Positions 12,837-20,511 of a stretch of DNA of 37,288 nucleotides are shown here, piece after piece. This DNA is from Kiritimatiellia bacterium (GTDB lineage Bacteria > Verrucomicrobiota > Kiritimatiellia > RFP12 > JAZUKQ01). The first letter of the stretch is position 1. Every line of letters starts with the position of its first letter. The position numbers and the translations under genes are program-made. The stretch lies in assembly GCA_045643325.1 (NCBI GenBank), contig JAZUKQ010000086.1, positions 1-37,288 of the forward strand, given 5' to 3'. The notes below the pieces were generated by a model. That model made no database searches, was not told where the DNA came from, and saw nothing but the letters and a program-made list of their open reading frames with translations.

Positions 12837-12865
12837 TTGACGCGGATAGTCCGAAATGATATTAT
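12837..12865 (+). promoter_or_regulatory. Sigma70-like promoter of marR / the efflux operon
   Basis: TTGACG (12837-12842), a 17-nt spacer, then TATTAT (12860-12865), ~48 nt upstream of the marR ATG. It is flanked by TCCGAAAT direct repeats (12850-12857, 12880-12887) and a CGATA-AAA-TATCG palindrome (12822-12834). Confidence 0.45.
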
Positions 12866-12912
12866 CTCGAACTGTTCTATCCGAAATAGGATTTTTAGCG
12901 AAGGGGCACGAC

Positions 12913-13362
12913 ATGGACGAGCAGACACACAACGACCGGATGGTGGAGGAGCGGCTGGGGTTGACGCACAGCCTCTTTCCGATTTTCAAACGGATGCAGG
13001 AACGGATCTCTAAAGAATTAGAAGAGTGGAAGCTTCCGTTCCACGCCGTCGACACGCTCGTTCTTCTGGATGTCCATCCCGACCTGTGGGAACCCGCCCA
13101 GCTCGCGGAACGCGTCCGGATACCCCGGCAGACAATGACCAGTGTCCTCGACACACTGGAGCGTCGCGGACTTGTCCGGCGCGGCCCCCACCCGAGCGAC
13201 CGCCGTCGCGTCCGCCTCGAAGTCACTCCCGAGGGACACAAAATCACACTTTCGGTCATCGACCGGGTCCGCGCCATGGAGGAGCATGCGCGCGCCGCGC
13301 TCGGCTCCGATGCCGACAAACTGTTGGAGCTGATTCGCCGGTTTGAAGAGGCTCTGGGGTGA
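12913..13362 (+). CDS. MarR-family winged-helix transcriptional regulator
   Basis: ORF 12856..13362 trimmed to the ATG at 12913 because the earlier ATG lies inside the predicted promoter. ...PAQLAERVRIPRQTMTSVLDTLERRGLVRRGPHPSDRRRVRLEVTPEG is the classic MarR wHTH and wing. Confidence 0.85.
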   Translation: MDEQTHNDRMVEERLGLTHSLFPIFKRMQERISKELEEWKLPFHAVDTLVLLDVHPDLWEPAQLAERVRIPRQTMTSVLDTLERRGLVRRGPHPSDRRRVRLEVTPEGHKITLSVIDRVRAMEEHARAALGSDADKLLELIRRFEEALG

Positions 13363-13509: not shown

Positions 13510-14829
13510 ATGGTCAGAAGATTTCTGCTCATCATTCCGTTGGCGCTCACGGGCTGCGTGTCTTTCGACGCGCGCGATGCCCGTCGGGAGCAGACGGAGT
13601 TGTTTCGGAAAGAGCTTGGCGAGAAGGCCTCGGTCTGGCTCGCGGAGCCCGTATCGCTCGAGGACTGCGTTCGGATTGCCATGACGAACAACTATGAGGT
13701 ACGCGCGGCCGAACTCGACCGCGAGGTGGGCCGTTGGGCGAAGACCATGGCGTTCTCGTCCTTCCTCCCGCAGGTGGAGGCGAAGGCGAGCTATGTGTGG
13801 TATCAGGACGAGCCGGTCGTCTCACCGAAGTCGTTCGAGAGCGCGTCGGCCGATGCCGGTCTCCCCGTGTTCATGCCTGCGGCGTGGTTTCTCTACGACG
13901 CGGCTCGTCACGGAGCGGACGCGGCCGATCTCGCCGCCTCGTATGTCCGGCAGAGCATCGTCCTCAAGACGACGCAGGCGTATTACGACGTCATTGTCCA
14001 ACAGGAGACGATCGCCGCCCTGAAAACGCAGTTGGAGGCCGCCGAGGAGCGGAGCGGCCGTGTCGCTGGCCTTGCCCGGGAGGGCATGGCGCGCGGGTGG
14101 GAACTTGGCCAGGCGACGTACCTCGCCGAGGCCCGCCGCACGGAACTCGCCGCGGCGAAGCGGAAACTCGCCACGCTTAAGGGAGACCTCCTCCGGTGTC
14201 TCGGGCTCTCCCCGCTCTCTGATATCGAGCTTCTCGGGGACGACCAGGTTCCGGCGCGTCCCGAGGGGTCCGTGGAGGACTTGGTGCTTCGGGCGTTGGA
14301 GATTCATCCCGAGCTCTCGCTCGCCGACCGCCAGGTTGTCATCAAGGAAACCGAGGTCCGCAAGGCGTTCTGCGATTTCATCCCCGTGCTCAATCTTTTC
14401 ATCTCGTATTCCCATTCGGGAAACACGTTGATGGGGCAGCCCGCGGACAACCTTTCGTTCGGTTTCAGCGGCGCGTGGTCGGTTTTTAAGGGTTTCGCGA
14501 ACACGGCGGCGTACAACACCAAAAAGGTCGAGCGCCGGAAGAGCGAGCTGGCGCGCGAGGAGACGTTCCTGTCGGTGATGGCGCGCGTGATCGCCGCCGA
14601 GGCGGCGGTACGCGACGCCGCAGACGGCGCGGCCGTGGCCGCGACGGCCTATGAGACGGCGCTTGGCAAGGCGGAGGACTTCGAGGCGCGCGCGAAAGAG
14701 GGTCTTGTCCCGCTCAACGAGGCGCTCGACGCCCGCGCCGCCGCGGATCTCGCCCAGGTCGAACTCGTCCGGAGCCGCTACCGGGAGAGGGTCGCGGTCG
14801 CTGCGCTCCGCTTTACCATGGGTGAATGA
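13510..14829 (+). CDS. Outer-membrane efflux factor (TolC/OprM-NodT family) lipoprotein
   Basis: 439 aa with lipoprotein signal MVRRFLLIIPLALTGC. It shows OEP-type repeats (LEDCVRIAMTNNYEVRAAELD..., QTQLEAAEER...). A strong SD (AAGGAGGAG) precedes the start, and the gene is in an operon with the MFP and RND genes. Confidence 0.85.
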   Translation: MVRRFLLIIPLALTGCVSFDARDARREQTELFRKELGEKASVWLAEPVSLEDCVRIAMTNNYEVRAAELDREVGRWAKTMAFSSFLPQVEAKASYVWYQDEPVVSPKSFESASADAGLPVFMPAAWFLYDAARHGADAADLAASYVRQSIVLKTTQAYYDVIVQQETIAALKTQLEAAEERSGRVAGLAREGMARGWELGQATYLAEARRTELAAAKRKLATLKGDLLRCLGLSPLSDIELLGDDQVPARPEGSVEDLVLRALEIHPELSLADRQVVIKETEVRKAFCDFIPVLNLFISYSHSGNTLMGQPADNLSFGFSGAWSVFKGFANTAAYNTKKVERRKSELAREETFLSVMARVIAAEAAVRDAADGAAVAATAYETALGKAEDFEARAKEGLVPLNEALDARAAADLAQVELVRSRYRERVAVAALRFTMGE

Positions 14830-14850: not shown

Positions 14851-16077
14851 ATGAAAAACAGCAATCAGGACCATTCGTCCGAGAATTTCCGCACCGTAAT
14901 TTCATATTGGATGAACCGTAGACTCATCGGGCTCGTCATACCGGTCCTGGCCGCGGGATGCGGGGGCGGAGAGACGACCACCGGAACGCCCCGCGAGACG
15001 CTGGCCGACCGCGTGCTCCCCGTGCGGACGCAGACCGTGGCTCCGGGTGTGTTCGAGGACCGGCTCACTGTCCAGGGCAGCCTCGAGTCCGTCGATACCG
15101 CGGTGGTGTCGGCCCGTGCCGGCGGCCCGCTTGTCGAGGTGTGCGTCGACGTGGGCGACAAGGTGGAGAAGGGGGTCACAAAACTCTTCTCCATCGACTC
15201 CGTCGCGTTGGAGAACAAGGCGGCCATCGACCGTGAGGGCGTCGCCACCGCGAAGGCGTCGCTCGCCGTCGCCGAGGCCCAGACGCGGTCGGCGAAGGCC
15301 GAGCTCCATAAGGCCGCGGCCGACGCCGACCGTTTCGCGCGCCTGCACGCCGAGAAGCGGGTGACGGACAACGAGGCCGAGACGGCCGCCACTCGCAAGG
15401 AGGCCGCGGAGGCCGCCGTGGCGGTCGCCGAGGCGAACGTCCAGCTCGCCCGCCAGCGCATCGCGCAGGCCGAGGCCGCGCTCGCCATCTCCGAGCGGAG
15501 TCTTTCCGACGCGACGCTTCTCGCTCCGATCGACGGTGTGGTGAGCGCCCGTCTGAAAGAGCCCGGAGAGATGGTCGCCGCCGGAACGCCGGTCGTGACA
15601 GTCCACGACACCCGCAAAGTCAAGGCCCGCGCGTTCCTTCCCTCCGAGTACTACGACCGAGTGGTACCCGGCAAGACGGTGTTCTCGCTTTCGCTCGGCG
15701 GCGAGTCCGCGGGCGAGGTGACCGTCGCGGCGAAGAGCCCCGTCATCGACATGCGTCTCCGGACATTCGAGTTTCGCGGCGTGCTCGAGAACGTCGCGGG
15801 CGCGGTGCCGGGCCGGATGGGCGATTTCACGGTCGTTTTCGAGCGGCGCGAGGGGCTCTCCGTTCCCGACGAGGCGGTTCTGGACCGCGCCGCGGGGACG
15901 GTCGTCTTCGCCGAACGCGACGGAAAGGCCGTCCAGCGGATGGTGAAGACCGGCCTTCGGTCCGACGGACGGACCGAAATTCTGGAAGGTCTCTCGGACG
16001 GCGAACGGGTTGTCGTCGAGGGGCAGTCGCAGCTGTTCGACGGGCGTGCTGTCAACGCGGTCCGGACGAACGACTGA
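14851..16077 (+). CDS. RND efflux periplasmic adaptor (membrane fusion protein, HlyD family), probable lipoprotein
   Basis: 408 aa with the lipobox LAAGC, a coiled-coil hairpin region (AKASLAVAEAQTRSAKAELHKA...) and beta-barrel/MP domains (APIDGVVSARLKEPGEMV). The ATG at 14851 has an AAAGGAG SD. The alternative ATG at 14911 (MNRRLIGLVIPVLAAGC) gives a more typical signal peptide. Confidence 0.85.
   Translation: MKNSNQDHSSENFRTVISYWMNRRLIGLVIPVLAAGCGGGETTTGTPRETLADRVLPVRTQTVAPGVFEDRLTVQGSLESVDTAVVSARAGGPLVEVCVDVGDKVEKGVTKLFSIDSVALENKAAIDREGVATAKASLAVAEAQTRSAKAELHKAAADADRFARLHAEKRVTDNEAETAATRKEAAEAAVAVAEANVQLARQRIAQAEAALAISERSLSDATLLAPIDGVVSARLKEPGEMVAAGTPVVTVHDTRKVKARAFLPSEYYDRVVPGKTVFSLSLGGESAGEVTVAAKSPVIDMRLRTFEFRGVLENVAGAVPGRMGDFTVVFERREGLSVPDEAVLDRAAGTVVFAERDGKAVQRMVKTGLRSDGRTEILEGLSDGERVVVEGQSQLFDGRAVNAVRTND
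14887..14905 (+). repeat. Copy 3 of the motif (TTCCGCACCGTAATTTCAT, then ATTGG)
   Basis: A 19-nt exact match to copies 1 and 2 (25/26 with copy 2 including flanks). It lies between the two candidate start codons of the adaptor gene. Confidence 0.85.
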
Positions 16078-16096: not shown

Positions 16097-19000
16097 ATGT
16101 TTCTAGCCACAGCATCCACCAAGCGTCCTGTCGCGATGGGGTGCCTTCTCATCGCGCTGGTTGTCCTCGGCGTCAACGCGTTCCGGAAATTCTCGCTTGA
16201 GAATCTTCCCAACATGGACGTTCCGTACGTCACGGTCACGACCGTCTGGCCCGGCGCCTCGCCGGAAGACTGCGAAAAGGACATCGCGAAACCCATCGAG
16301 GACGCCGTCTCGGGCGTCGAGGGGGTGAAGCACGTCAACTCGATGTGTCTGGAGAACGCGGCGAGCGTCATTCTGGAGTTCGACCTCTCGGTGAACGTCG
16401 ATGTCGCCTCGCAGGATGTCCGTGAGAAGGTCGACGGCATTCTCTCGCAGCTTCCGGCGGACGCCGAGCGTCCCGTCATTGAAAAGCTCGACATCAACGC
16501 GACGGCCGTCGCGACGCTCTTCCTTGAGGGAGAGCAGTCGGTCGACGAACTCTACAACTATGCCGACAACAACCTGGCGGACCGGTTCTCCAACGTCAAG
16601 GGCGTCGCGTCGGTCGACCTTGTCGGAGGCAACGAGCGCGAGGTCTGGGTCGAACTCGACCGCGGGAAGCTCGCCGCGGCGGGACTCACGGCGGCGGACG
16701 CCGTCCGGGCGATCCAGGGCGGCATCCTCAGCCTTCCCGGAGGCCGCGTCCGCGAAAGCGGAAGCGAGTACGCGGTGAAGTTCGACGCCGATTTCGCCGA
16801 CCTTGACGCCGTCGCGGGACTCGAGGTCGCTGCCTCGGACGGCGCACGGCGGACGCTTGCCGACCTCGGCACGGTCCGGAACGCTACGAAGGAGGTCCGC
16901 CAGCGCGCGTTCCTCAACGGGACGCCCGGCGTCGTCGTGAAAATCGTGAAGAAGTCCGACGGCAACACGGTCGAGGTCGTCGAGAAACTTCGCGAGCGCT
17001 ACGACGAGCTCTCCGCCACGCTGCCCGCCGGCATGCGGCTTCGTTGGGTGTACGACGACGGAGCGATCGTCTCGAAGACGGTCTCCTCGACGCTCTCCGA
17101 CCTCGTCTCCGCGGTGCTCCTCTGCGCGGGTATCCTTTTCGCCTTCCTTGTCAACGTGCGCACGACGCTCATCGTCTCCGTCACGATGCCGGTGACGGTG
17201 CTTGTCGCGTTTTTCTTCATGCGGCTTTTCGGGCTTACGCTCAATATCATCACGCTTCTTGCGCTCGGGCTTTCGGCTGGCATCCTCGTCTCGAACTCCA
17301 TCGTGGTGCTGGAGAACGTCGTGCGGCGCTTCGAGGACACGGAGGACCCGTGGGAGGCCGCGCGCGTCGGAACGAGCCAGGTGGCCGTCGCGGTGCTTGC
17401 CTCGGCGGGCACGAACGTGGTCGTGATGCTGCCCCTCACGATGATGAGCTCCATCGTGGGCAAGGTGTTCACGCCGTTCGCGACGACGACGCTCATCGTC
17501 AACCTCGCCTCCATCTTCGTCTCCTTCACGCTCGTCCCGATTCTCTGCGCGCTCTTCATGAGGCGCGGGGCAAGGTTCGCGGGCTCTTGGACCGCCCGGT
17601 TCGAGCGTCGTTGGGACGAGGGGTTCGGACGTCTTGCCGCGCGCTACGGGAGTTGGATCCGCGCGGTCGCGGACCGGCGGGTCGTCTCGGGGCTCGCGGT
17701 TGTCGCGACTGTGGCGGTTTTCCTGCTCACAATGGTCTTCGGGACGCGCGGCATCGGTTTCAACTTCATCGATACGGACGACTGGGGCCGGGTTTTCGTC
17801 CGGTGCGAGTTCCCGACCTACTATGACCTCCAGCGCACGACGGATCGGGCGCAGGAGATCGCCGCGATGTTCAAGGAATACCCCGACCTGGAAGAGACGC
17901 TGATCTCGGCCGGCCGTGCCGACGCGCTGGGCGGTCAGGCGAACGAGGGCGTGTACCTCGCGCAGATCGAGCTTGTCTTCAAGCCGGTGTACGAACGGAA
18001 ATGGAAGATATCCGACATGGTGCAGCGCGTCCGGGCGGACCTCGCCGTCGTGCCGGACCTCATCGCGTCGGCCTCGCCGCCGAGTCCGATGGGCGGCAGC
18101 GTCAACAACATCAACCTCCGCCTGTGCGGGCCCGATCTGGATACGCTCGGAGACAAGGCGGTCGCGCTGCAGCAGGAGATCATGAAGGATCCCGACGTTG
18201 CGGCGATCGACACGACGGCCCGCGACGACAAGCCGGAACTCCGGGTGCGTCCGCGCCGGACGGTTCTCGCGGACGCCGGCGTCACGCCCGCGGCGGTCGG
18301 GACGGTTGTCCGCGCGAATCTCGACGGTATCGAGGCGGCCTCCTACAAGACGGGCGACCGGACGGTGGACATCCGCGTGAAGACCGCGGAGCGCGCGGGG
18401 ACGGGCCAGGTCGCGGAGTTCGCGATTCCGTCGATGCCGGGCTACACCGTGCCGCTTTCGGCGGTGGCCGACGTGGTGCGAGGGCGGACGAAGAGCATGA
18501 TCTACCGGGTGGACAAGGAGCGCTCCGTCTGCATCCTCGGGAACGAGGCGCCGGGGGCGCCGGCGAAGACGGTCACCGACCGGATTGTCGCGAGGGCGGA
18601 GGAGATGGGCGTCGTGGACGCCGCGTCCGGCTACACGCTGCGGCCCGGCGGGTCGACGGAGACCATGGACGACTCGCTCGCGGACTTCGGGGAGGCGATC
18701 GTTCTCGCGGTGCTGCTGACCTATCTCACGCTCGCGGCGATTCTGGAGAGTTTCACGCGGCCGTTTCTCGTGCTGCTCACGGTGCCGATGGCGCTCATCG
18801 GCGTGGTGCTCGCGCTCCGGTGGACGGGGCTCAACATCTCGATCTTCGTGTTGTTGGGCGTCATCCTGCTCATCGGCGTCGTGGTGAACGCGGCGGTGCT
18901 CGTCGTGGACCGGATGGACCAGCTTGTCCGCGAGGGGGCGGAGCGCCGCGAGGCGATGCTTCTGGCGGTCGAGCAGACCTTCCGGTCGGTGCTGATGGTT

Positions 19001-19168
19001 GTCGCGGCCTCGGGTCTCGGAATGATTCCGATCGCGATGGCGAGCGGAATCGGCGCGGTCTATCGCGTCGGAATCGGCGCGGCGAGCGTGGGCGGCATTC
19101 TGGTCGCGGGCGTCCTCACGGTCACGGTGCTCCCGCTTTTCTATCTGGTGTTCGTCCGGAAGAGGTAG
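16097..19168 (+). CDS. RND-superfamily efflux permease (AcrB/ACR_tran-like), non-canonical proton-relay residues
   Basis: ORF 16010..19168 trimmed to the ATG at 16097 (MFLATASTKRPVAMGCLLIALVV...), which is preceded by AGGAAAGGAG. It is ~1023 aa with duplicated 6-TM plus large-loop architecture and the motifs SIVVLENV and NAAVLVVD. Confidence 0.9.
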   Translation: MFLATASTKRPVAMGCLLIALVVLGVNAFRKFSLENLPNMDVPYVTVTTVWPGASPEDCEKDIAKPIEDAVSGVEGVKHVNSMCLENAASVILEFDLSVNVDVASQDVREKVDGILSQLPADAERPVIEKLDINATAVATLFLEGEQSVDELYNYADNNLADRFSNVKGVASVDLVGGNEREVWVELDRGKLAAAGLTAADAVRAIQGGILSLPGGRVRESGSEYAVKFDADFADLDAVAGLEVAASDGARRTLADLGTVRNATKEVRQRAFLNGTPGVVVKIVKKSDGNTVEVVEKLRERYDELSATLPAGMRLRWVYDDGAIVSKTVSSTLSDLVSAVLLCAGILFAFLVNVRTTLIVSVTMPVTVLVAFFFMRLFGLTLNIITLLALGLSAGILVSNSIVVLENVVRRFEDTEDPWEAARVGTSQVAVAVLASAGTNVVVMLPLTMMSSIVGKVFTPFATTTLIVNLASIFVSFTLVPILCALFMRRGARFAGSWTARFERRWDEGFGRLAARYGSWIRAVADRRVVSGLAVVATVAVFLLTMVFGTRGIGFNFIDTDDWGRVFVRCEFPTYYDLQRTTDRAQEIAAMFKEYPDLEETLISAGRADALGGQANEGVYLAQIELVFKPVYERKWKISDMVQRVRADLAVVPDLIASASPPSPMGGSVNNINLRLCGPDLDTLGDKAVALQQEIMKDPDVAAIDTTARDDKPELRVRPRRTVLADAGVTPAAVGTVVRANLDGIEAASYKTGDRTVDIRVKTAERAGTGQVAEFAIPSMPGYTVPLSAVADVVRGRTKSMIYRVDKERSVCILGNEAPGAPAKTVTDRIVARAEEMGVVDAASGYTLRPGGSTETMDDSLADFGEAIVLAVLLTYLTLAAILESFTRPFLVLLTVPMALIGVVLALRWTGLNISIFVLLGVILLIGVVVNAAVLVVDRMDQLVREGAERREAMLLAVEQTFRSVLMVVAASGLGMIPIAMASGIGAVYRVGIGAASVGGILVAGVLTVTVLPLFYLVFVRKR

Positions 19169-19194
19169 ACTGTCCCTCCGGGGAGAGTTTTGGT

Positions 19195-20511
19195 ATGCTT
19201 TCGCGTATGAAAGCGAAGAGCGCCTCGTCCCTTAAATGTAATTTCTTCTGTATCGCGCTGGCCTTGGTTTTTTTCGCGTTTTCCACCGGGACCACGTGGA
19301 CGCCGGGGTGTGATTTCGTATGGCGGCTGAACGAGAGCCGTTGCGTGCTGGCCGGCTACGACCCGTATGCGGTCGCGTTCAATGGTGTCGAGACACCGGA
19401 TTACTGCTCGCTGTTCAATCCGGAGGACGGAAAGCGGCTGGTCAACGGGTACACGCCGTGGACGTACCTGTGGACGATGCCCCTGTCGTTCCTTTCCGAC
19501 GAGTTGGCGAATACGCTGTTTATTTTGATGAATCTGGTGGCGTACGTCGTGCTGATTGTGTTTGCGGCGAAGTATGCGAAAGAGAAAAGTCTCTCCCGGT
19601 TCGACACAATGGGGGTGATGGGGTTCTCGGTGTTTCTTGGGGCCTCGCTTCCAAGGGTGCTGCAGGTCTCGAATTTCGGGTTGCTGATGGCGGCCGCGCT
19701 GACGGGGATGGCATACTGCCTAAACCGGCGGCGGGACGTTCTGGCGGGCGTGCTGTACGCGGTCTTGTGCATTAAGCCGCAAATCGCGCTGCCCTTCCTG
19801 ATACCGTTGCTCTGGCGGCGGCGGTTCCGGACTGTCGCGACGGCGGGGGCGCTGTGTTTCCTCTCGTCGTTGCCTCCGGCCGTCTGGTGCCGCAGGAATC
19901 CGCTTGCGATGATTCTCCATGTCGCGGACTCCGGATCCCGGTCAATCCGGACGTGGAGCCGGAGCACGGCGCTTGTCCCGGCGCCGGTTTTCAAACTATT
20001 GTCAGAATGGATTCCGGAGAACGCGGTGTTGTTGCTTTCGACTCTGACCGCGCTTACGGTCTGCGTTCTGCTGACCCGGCGTCTCCGGAAGGCAGAGGAG
20101 GATGCGTGCGTGTGGCTTGTTCCGGCGGTTTTCGCCGCGCTGAACGGCCCGTACGGGCATCTTCACGACCGAGTGATGCTCTCGCTCCCGTTGGTGGTTC
20201 TTTCGGCGCAGCGGTTCGCCGTCTCCGTTGAAAGGTCCGGCGCGGCGGACTGTTCCTCCTTGGTTTCTCCGTCGCGCCGTTCTCGTCTCCTGACGTGGGG
20301 ACTTGTCCTTTTCGCGGCGGAATTCGTGCTGATGCCGTTTCTTGGAACCGTGTACGTCGACACATCGGAGGCCGCGTTCACCGCGGTGTCCGCCTACGAT
20401 TGGTTTCTTTGTGTCGTGAGCTATCTGCAGATTGTGTTTTTATTCGTGTGGACGCGGATTTGCGGAAGCCAAGCCATTTCAGTGGAAACGGGTCGCGTAG
20501 CGAATGCGTGA
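19195..20511 (+). CDS. Polytopic membrane protein, GT-C fold glycosyltransferase-like (DUF2029/GT87-like), paralog 1
   Basis: This is the portion of ORF 18001..20511 downstream of the RND stop, with the ATG at 19195. It has many TM segments, an N-terminal D-x-x-x-R...GYDPY loop, and a CIKPQIALPFLIPLL motif shared with the 21369..22673 protein. The family assignment is from memory of DUF2029 features. Confidence 0.6.
   Translation: MLSRMKAKSASSLKCNFFCIALALVFFAFSTGTTWTPGCDFVWRLNESRCVLAGYDPYAVAFNGVETPDYCSLFNPEDGKRLVNGYTPWTYLWTMPLSFLSDELANTLFILMNLVAYVVLIVFAAKYAKEKSLSRFDTMGVMGFSVFLGASLPRVLQVSNFGLLMAAALTGMAYCLNRRRDVLAGVLYAVLCIKPQIALPFLIPLLWRRRFRTVATAGALCFLSSLPPAVWCRRNPLAMILHVADSGSRSIRTWSRSTALVPAPVFKLLSEWIPENAVLLLSTLTALTVCVLLTRRLRKAEEDACVWLVPAVFAALNGPYGHLHDRVMLSLPLVVLSAQRFAVSVERSGAADCSSLVSPSRRSRLLTWGLVLFAAEFVLMPFLGTVYVDTSEAAFTAVSAYDWFLCVVSYLQIVFLFVWTRICGSQAISVETGRVANA

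Follow-up and report, generated by a model that had tools for sequence, protein, structure and literature searches.

The stretch of DNA analysed here (the window) comprises 37,288 nucleotides from a Kiritimatiellia bacterium (assembly GCA_045643325.1, contig JAZUKQ010000086.1, positions 1 to 37,288 of the forward strand). It carries a gene for a permease of the RND (resistance-nodulation-division) superfamily in whose transmembrane (TM) helices the proton-relay residues of AcrB are replaced by uncharged ones. The permease is the last gene of an operon with the following members:

12856 to 13362, plus strand: MarR-family regulator, first gene of the operon (PF01047, E 1.1e-11, 44.9 bits against a cutoff of 24.6)
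13510 to 14829, plus strand: TolC-like outer-membrane factor (OEP; PF02321, two repeats, E 2e-34)
14851 to 16077, plus strand: periplasmic adaptor of the membrane fusion protein (MFP) type (TIGR01730 RND_mfp, 172 bits against a cutoff of 94.9)
16097 to 19168, plus strand: RND permease with an acid-free TM core (PF00873, AlphaFold2 model and Foldseek)

The genes for the outer-membrane factor and the adaptor lie directly upstream of the permease gene on the same strand, as expected of a tripartite RND efflux system. The outer-membrane factor scores 95 bits with the TolC-family profile TIGR01844, which is below the cutoff. The adaptor is a probable lipoprotein, since its N-terminus (...VLAAGCGGG) resembles a lipobox, and it offers no acidic TM helix from which a relay residue might come.

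The open reading frame (ORF) of the permease translates without interruption into 1023 amino acids, and a Shine-Dalgarno-like GGAAAGGAG precedes its ATG. It matches PF00873 (AcrB/AcrD/AcrF) with an E-value of 3.9e-202 and 674 bits against a cutoff of 28. The match spans residues 7-1019 and profile positions 5-1020 of 1021, so the protein belongs to the RND superfamily over its full length. None of the curated NCBIfam subfamily or equivalog cutoffs is reached, including those for proton-driven pumps of the hydrophobe/amphiphile efflux family HAE-1. The best score is 617 bits for RND_permease_2 (cutoff 1250), followed by 479 bits for RND_permease_1 (cutoff 1250), 419 bits for TIGR00915 (cutoff 940) and 235 bits for the AcrB equivalog (cutoff 2150). 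The heavy-metal efflux (HME) pumps CusA and CzcA are no better fit, with 313 bits for TIGR00914 against a cutoff of 701. An AlphaFold2 (AF2) model of the protomer (md7b46a3076a9) was made from a 61-sequence alignment and has a mean predicted local distance difference test score (pLDDT) of 80 and a predicted template modelling score (pTM) of 0.71. Foldseek superposes it on AcrD, AdeJ and AcrB with template modelling scores (TM-scores) of 0.85-0.86. Together with 12 uncharged hydrophobic stretches, the modelled secondary structure and two large periplasmic loops, this identifies an AcrB-like fold. The model is slightly closer to chains in the O state (extrusion; TM-score 0.84-0.86), namely chain C of asymmetric AcrB entries, 9fdp and AdeB OOO, than to chains in the L state (0.79-0.83).

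In AcrB, the TM proton relay is formed by D407, D408, K940, R971 and T978 (PMC5727081; PMC8277102). The corresponding residues of the permease are listed below, with their conservation in a close set of 121 sequences, consisting of the permease itself and its best 120 database homologues. These are 54-65% identical to it, and the named ones come from metagenome-assembled genomes (MAGs) of Kiritimatiellae/Kiritimatiellia.

17291 to 17296, plus strand: S399-N400 in TM4, equivalent to AcrB D407-D408 (codons TCG at 17291-17293 and AAC at 17294-17296); S in 120/121 and N in 121/121 sequences
18887 to 18892, plus strand: N931-A932 in TM10, equivalent to AcrB K940-N941 (N931 codon AAC at 18887-18889); N931 in 121/121 sequences
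18977 to 19000, plus strand: T961, R963 and V968 in TM11, equivalent to AcrB R971, R973 and T978 (codons ACC, CGG and GTT)

All five relay positions are therefore replaced (D407 by S399, D408 by N400, K940 by N931, R971 by T961 and T978 by V968), and the permease reads S, N, N, T, V where proton-driven HAE-1 pumps carry the relay. AcrB N941 is replaced as well, by A932; this position is A, P or G across the clade. Within the close set, position 971 is T, Q or E, while R occupies 973 in 121/121 sequences and V occupies 978 in 117/121. An earlier note on this DNA had counted three charge losses and had taken R971 as retained. However, the Arg in its motif TFRSVLM aligns with AcrB R973, the R971 position being T961, and three losses is therefore too low a count. 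Translation and codon read-out do reproduce the ORF, the motifs and the codon positions of that note, and the Glu of the VEN motif is indeed kept (E406, equivalent to AcrB E414).

The equivalence to D407, D408 and K940, which had been aligned by eye, is borne out by independent means. In the phmmer alignment to MdtB, the permease reads 'gilvsnsivvlen' under 'gfvvddaivvien' in TM4 and 'igvvvnaavlvvd' under 'igivkknaimmid' in TM10. The same equivalences are obtained from MAFFT alignments of four different sequence sets with E. coli AcrB (reference sequence from NC_000913.3). An alignment-free census shows that all 12 hydrophobic TM stretches (17-32 amino acids) are without D, E, K, R or H. A register shift can thus be ruled out. 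As S/N/N is found in 120/121, 121/121 and 121/121 sequences of the close set at the three positions, chance or sequencing error is excluded too; against sequencing error the earlier note had already argued, from coordinated charge losses in an intact ORF.

To place the permease among its relatives, each sequence was given a signature, i.e. its residues at AcrB positions 407/408/940/971/978. A search of 1.84 billion cluster representatives returned 11,173 with E <= 1e-30, the best 150 of which were aligned. The canonical class comprises 71 representatives (64 are exactly DDKRT) and a class with a single Asp, mostly DNNRT, 24. Another 40 are acid-free but keep R or K at position 971 (T/S/N/A-N-N-R/K-T/S/A), and nine are acid-free without it, among them the permease (SNNTV). 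The earlier statement that pumps with the VDNxIVV motif keep the Lys of TM10 does not hold, as 22 of the 24 representatives with a lone Asp in TM4 read IVVNNAI in TM10, with Asn at position 940. A profile of the acid-free class that keeps R/K971 retrieved another 120 proteins, 118 of them acid-free, with Eisenbacteria, Latescibacteria, Poribacteria, Zixibacteria, KSB1, Coatesbacteria, Chitinivibrionia and Planctomycetota as named sources. A Thermogutta protein is acid-free as well (TNNRI), and a contig search with the permease alone yielded a single locus, from a Desulfatiglans MAG, with the same signature TNNRI. In total, 295 full-length acid-free sequences were collected, including Planctomycetota, Desulfobacterota and several candidate phyla, with representatives down to about 30% identity to the permease. 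On plasmids of cultured bacteria, the closest relatives (about 31% identity) are canonical DDKRT and no cultured acid-free example was found there.

In a neighbour-joining distance tree (signature columns removed, no support values), the acid-free proteins form a single block, nested beyond the DNN class. The block contains one DNNRT sequence and one in which the Asp has moved to position 940, and one SNNKT sequence lies inside the DNN group. The subclade of the permease, without R971, is nested within the acid-free block. This topology suggests a stepwise order from DDKRT via DNNRT and xNN(R/K)x to SNN(T/Q/E)V in the subclade of the permease. Judged by this survey, which the earlier note had proposed, the acid-free proteins are a clade and not a one-off: their loss of charge is a lineage trait rather than an error, and they are a widespread, uncharacterised class of RND permeases. 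The note had also considered that they might turn out to be a common, characterised proton-coupled subfamily. Common they are, given 295 sequences from several phyla; characterised they are not, as neither a solved structure nor a description was found.

Some individual members of the collection stand out. P0149 (ACATT), near the acid-free block, also lacks the VEN motif and looks truly degenerate. P0125, P0126, P0136 and P0185 are polypeptides of about 1470-1630 amino acids in which a full RND permease (ACR_tran) is fused to a TolC-like outer-membrane factor with two OEP repeats. Such fusions occur in both the acid-free and the canonical classes; they are topologically odd and are either real or merged gene calls.

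In place of the charged residues, the acid-free class has gained a set of polar ones. Just two columns of the alignment draw a clean line between acid-free and acid-containing representatives. One is AcrB L449 in TM5, where Asn has a frequency of 0.96 in the former and 0.05 in the latter. The polar positions in TM5 and TM6 of the permease are:

17411 to 17416, plus strand: T439-N440 in TM5, equivalent to AcrB V448-L449; T in 293/295 and N in 293/295 acid-free sequences
17501 to 17524, plus strand: N469, S472 and S476 in TM6, equivalent to AcrB M478, S481 and A485; all three without variation in the 61-sequence alignment

Across the 295 acid-free sequences, N is found at position 408 in 292 (N400 in the permease) and at 940 in 294 (N931), T at 448 in 293 (T439), N at 449 in 293 (N440), T or N at 478 in 291 (N469), S at 481 in 294 (S472) and S at 485 in 285 (S476). 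In the 61-sequence alignment, S399 has a frequency of 0.98 and N400, T439, N440, N469, S472, S476 and N931 each 1.0. TM4 and TM5, with 56% and 47% invariant columns compared to 18% overall, are the most conserved segments of the protein. The number of S, T, N and Q residues in TM4-6 rises from 9.5 in DDK pumps to 14.0 in the R/K971-keeping subclass and about 15.6 in the subclade of the permease. In AcrB, S481 is a hydrogen-bond donor to D408 (PMC4359379). Position 449, the invariant Asn of the acid-free class, holds a third Asp in 18 acid-containing representatives (e.g. P0165, P0179 and P0184, 'AITLVDVVV'). P0174 has its Asp at position 940 in TM10, and P0157 and P0128 combine Asp at 408 with His at 449. 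Because the carboxylate 'wanders' in this way among the positions of the cluster in relatives, the polar cluster can be read as a still functional centre, or ion locus.

Charged residues do remain at the ends of the helices:

17312 to 17314, plus strand: E406, equivalent to AcrB E414 (VEN motif), the carboxylate at the cytoplasmic end of TM4; E in 394/396 sequences, all classes
18908 to 18913, plus strand: D938-R939, equivalent to AcrB E947-F948, with R939 as the apparently relocated positive charge
18683 to 18694, plus strand: D863 and E866, clade-specific acidic residues of TM8 (periplasmic end); D in 120/121 and E in 118/121 sequences of the close set, varying in other classes

Position 948 is K or R in 112/121 close homologues. 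Over 396 sequences, four are charged at both 971 and 948, 260 only at 971, 119 only at 948 and 13 at neither, so that the subclade of the permease has apparently moved the charge of R971 to the position of AcrB F948 (R939). R971 of AcrB contacts E414/N415 of TM4 when the repeats are engaged and L944/F948 of TM10 when they are disengaged (PMC4359379). Since E406 is kept and position 948 is charged, an ionic contact between the two TM repeats may thus be preserved at the cytoplasmic end of TM4, and the swap suggests selection for a positive partner near E406/D938. D863 and E866 are at most a candidate alternative titratable site.

The arrangement of the operon is also conserved. The order regulator (MarR or TetR)-OEP-MFP-RND recurs in five related loci. 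Three are Kiritimatiellia-like (L003, L005 and L017) and have the MarR gene in the matching position; the other two come from more distant acid-free relatives, i.e. Thermogutta (L015, TNNRI), where the OEP gene is found on the opposite strand, just upstream, and a TNNRT relative (L016). Neither the locus of the permease nor these five loci contain an additional conserved gene able to supply energy. In the locus of the closest relative (L003, 4892-6811; L004, 222-2141), MarR and OEP are called as one product of 639 amino acids, which is either a fusion or a merged call. A PagL lipid A deacylase and a Mem_trans protein (auxin-efflux-carrier family) directly follow the acid-free RND gene in L005 (11100-12718) and L017 (10101-11671), which may point to a connection with outer-membrane lipid remodelling for some members.

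With the residues present, the classical Asp/Asp/Lys switch cannot operate in this permease, a conclusion of the earlier note that the confirmed replacements support. Every charge used by the textbook pumps is lost from the membrane core, and the protein would therefore be either powered differently or not a pump, the two options raised in the earlier note. Observation covers the replaced residues and how well they are conserved, the way the classes nest, the operon and the fold. What we infer beyond them, namely pumping and its driving force, is an energy-coupled exporter with rewired coupling, to which an even chance is given. The ORF would then supply the inner-membrane permease to a complete tripartite RND efflux system under MarR control. 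It would belong to a large lineage in which invariant uncharged polar side chains took over, step by step, from the mid-membrane Asp/Asp/Lys switch. The cluster of S399/N400 (TM4), T439/N440 (TM5), N469/S472/S476 (TM6) and N931 (TM10) would form an ion pathway or site. The only remaining ionic contact between the repeats would be that of E406 with R939 at the cytoplasmic end of TM4, the charge of R939 having arrived when R971 was lost. The preferred variant would be Na+ bound by Ser/Thr/Asn oxygens, with a water wire delivering H+ to E406 as a close second. As precedents for Na+, VexEF and the Na+-binding DISP1 can be cited, as can the DNNRT sister signature in Ilyobacter polytropus and Acetoanaerobium. 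Four features speak for a working protein: how strongly it is conserved, the polar residues it gained, the apparently relocated charge and a regulated tripartite operon. The evidence leans to a still-functional pump, short of proof.

The broader proposal is more tentative and somewhat short of an even chance. It holds that a whole RND lineage, spanning the Planctomycetes-Verrucomicrobia-Chlamydiae (PVC) group, candidate phyla related to the Fibrobacteres-Chlorobi-Bacteroidetes (FCB) group and Desulfobacterota, might work without any intramembrane carboxylate or Lys, via a neutral Na+ site of Asn/Ser/Thr only or a proton wire to the VEN Glu. If true, it would give the RND superfamily a coupling chemistry that has not been described there, and it would contradict the generalisation of a central acidic residue. 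According to a 2021 review (Chem Rev, PMC8277102), all characterised RND pumps use the proton motive force for coupling, with one Na+ case, at least one acidic residue is central in all RND transporters, and substitution of the central acidic residues abolishes activity. Literature searches aimed at relay or coupling residues of a non-canonical kind brought up no description of RND pumps that lack the carboxylate. One apparent hit for 'TM4' in a V. parahaemolyticus RND paper was discarded, as it refers to strain names and not to helices.

Several points weigh against a rewired exporter. DISP1 binds three Na+, each by one Asp of TM4/TM10 and hydroxyls of TM5/TM11, and changing its three intramembrane Asp to Asn (DISP1-NNN) abolishes Na+ binding and function. 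In AcrB, the D407N protein is structurally perturbed, with the repeat interface partly disengaged (PMC4359379). Taken together with the reviewed substitutions, a carboxylate-free site is therefore without precedent in the superfamily. Buried Asn, Ser and Thr could be kept merely for helix packing, and their invariance is therefore no proof of an ion site. The 971/948 swap is essentially one clade-level event rather than many independent ones, which makes it suggestive but not statistical proof. E406 is conserved in every class and hence not class-specific, and it lies near the cytoplasmic surface. The slightly better fit of the model to the O state could reflect a protonated-like neutral core or just a preference of AlphaFold, and it would also fit a locked, non-cycling TM domain.

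Such a locked domain is what would be expected if the protein were not ion-coupled at all. The neutral core would then fix the TM domain in a protonated-like, disengaged state, and the protein would serve as a passive conduit or valve, as an adaptor-channel scaffold or as a sensor. The loss of all five relay residues, TM helices without any ionisable residue, the marginal lean of the model to O-state protomers and the inactivity of RND proteins substituted at the central acidic residues (PMC8277102) and of DISP1-NNN are all consistent with this. PTCHD1/4, which conserve the DISP1-type site poorly, have been suggested to have given up transport, and the degenerate P0149 shows that such decay exists among the relatives. 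However, no segments of the protein are better conserved than TM4 and TM5, the class gained invariant polar residues instead of drifting, and the positive charge was apparently relocated rather than lost. The gene also sits in a regulator-controlled three-part efflux operon, here and in the five related loci, and a conduit that passively spanned both membranes would leak. A protein without ion coupling is thus considered unlikely, although it keeps a real share of the probability.

The same low standing is given to a permease still driven by protons through carboxylates outside the classical site, either E406 with R939/R963 at the cytoplasmic end of TM4/TM10, served by a water wire that follows the polar cluster, or D863/E866 at the periplasmic end of TM8, whose role is to couple membrane and porter domains. 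Of 396 sequences, 394 have E406, and the swap from 971 to 948 keeps a cationic partner beside it. AcrB offers both the contact of R971 with E414/N415 and water channels along TM5/TM10 and TM4/TM11 (PMC4359379). Nevertheless, canonical pumps conserve E414 and E947 just as well without these being regarded as the proton site, and since E406 is located near the cytoplasmic surface, alternating access would need a gated wire across most of the membrane. D863 and E866, nearly invariant among the close homologues and variable elsewhere, are absent from most of the wider acid-free class and therefore do not explain the class as a whole.

Far less probable is a silent subunit of an MdtBC-like heterotrimer with a canonical proton-conducting partner encoded elsewhere. 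MdtB is the best sequence match among solved structures, and subunits of the MdtBC heterotrimer can contribute unequally. Yet the MdtB and MdtC genes are adjacent and both products keep the relay, whereas the permease is encoded by a single RND gene, with no second one in the 37-kb window or within 7-8 kb of the permease in the five related loci (L003, L005, L015, L016 and L017). With no conserved extra gene and no acidic TM helix in the adaptor either, a hidden partner was rejected for these loci. Finally, an artefact (sequencing error, pseudogene or register shift) can practically be dismissed: although a single nucleotide change in the codon of N400 or N931 would give one for Asp or Lys, the identical residues recur in 120 independent homologues, 295 sequences are acid-free overall, the ORF is intact at full length, and five alignments and the charge census agree.

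The remainder of the window consists of a region with ribosomal-protein and EF-G genes at about 1-12 kb and, at about 19-36 kb, a cluster of glycosyltransferase and O-antigen-ligase genes. A polytopic GT87-family glycosyltransferase of 438 amino acids (19195-20511, plus strand) starts 27 nt past the stop codon of the RND gene and is masked in the ORF list by a spurious 836-amino acid ORF (18001..20511). It probably belongs to the downstream glycan cluster, as it is not conserved beside the RND gene in the related loci. Between about 20000 and 24000, the GC content is 0.53-0.58 compared to about 0.64 elsewhere, with a strong positive GC skew. This low-GC stretch opens a cluster of GT11, GT87, GT4, GT25, GT2 and a Wzy_C O-antigen ligase that extends to about 36.4 kb and may be a horizontally acquired surface-glycan island.

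The current mechanistic picture of RND proteins has the two TM repeats engage and disengage through protonation of an Asp in mid-membrane. It derives from AcrB, MexB, CusA, MmpL3 and SecDF, and applies to DISP1/PTCH1 with Na+. A large, conserved natural clade without the acidic residue is a ready-made test of the central-acidic-residue rule (PMC8277102), and the graded series DDKRT, DNNRT, xNN(R/K) and SNN(x)V provides intermediates for dissecting the switch by experiment. If the acid-free proteins pump, they do so by a different coupling chemistry, which would widen the repertoire of the superfamily and give a clue to the evolution of its ion specificity. If they do not, efflux operons can be kept for a non-pumping purpose. 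Such genes are annotated plainly as 'efflux RND transporter permease', and metagenomic resistome surveys would count them as ordinary proton-driven resistance pumps.

Compared to the proton-driven HAE-1 pumps AcrB, MexB and AcrD, the permease is alike in its 12 TM helices, two periplasmic loops, Pfam family and tripartite operon logic, and it keeps the VEN Glu (E414), S481, R973 and G936 of AcrB. It differs in its overall sequence (about 21-24% identity) and in the replacement of all five relay residues and N941. Among solved structures, MdtB (PDB 9lyq) is the best sequence match, aligning end to end with 334 bits and an E-value of 1.5e-98, and none closer was found for the permease or for a DNN representative. 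MdtB carries DD in its TM4, KK in its TM10, and functions together with MdtC, while the permease has no partner gene.

The DNNRT class, exemplified by annotated permeases of Ilyobacter polytropus (pILYOP01) and Acetoanaerobium noterae, adjoins the acid-free block in the distance tree. It shares N408, N940, N941 and a hydroxyl-rich TM5 with that block, the permease itself having A932 at position 941, but D407, R971 and T978 are still present in it, and its position 449 is T rather than N. Among RND drug pumps, VexEF of Vibrio cholerae is the single one for which a need for Na+ is reported (PMC8277102; PMC10872679). It belongs to the proposed HAE-4 family (clade H), which comprises about 20% of RND genes with an enrichment in saline habitats (PMC10872679), and it is set beside the permease by its published description, as a precedent for Na+. 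In the eukaryotic, Na+-driven DISP1/PTCH1, the ion site lies at the centre of TM4/TM10 with hydroxyls from TM5/TM11, much like the Ser/Thr/Asn cluster of the permease. In DISP1, however, each Na+ is neutralised by one Asp, whereas the permease is a natural 'NNN-like' protein that is nevertheless conserved.

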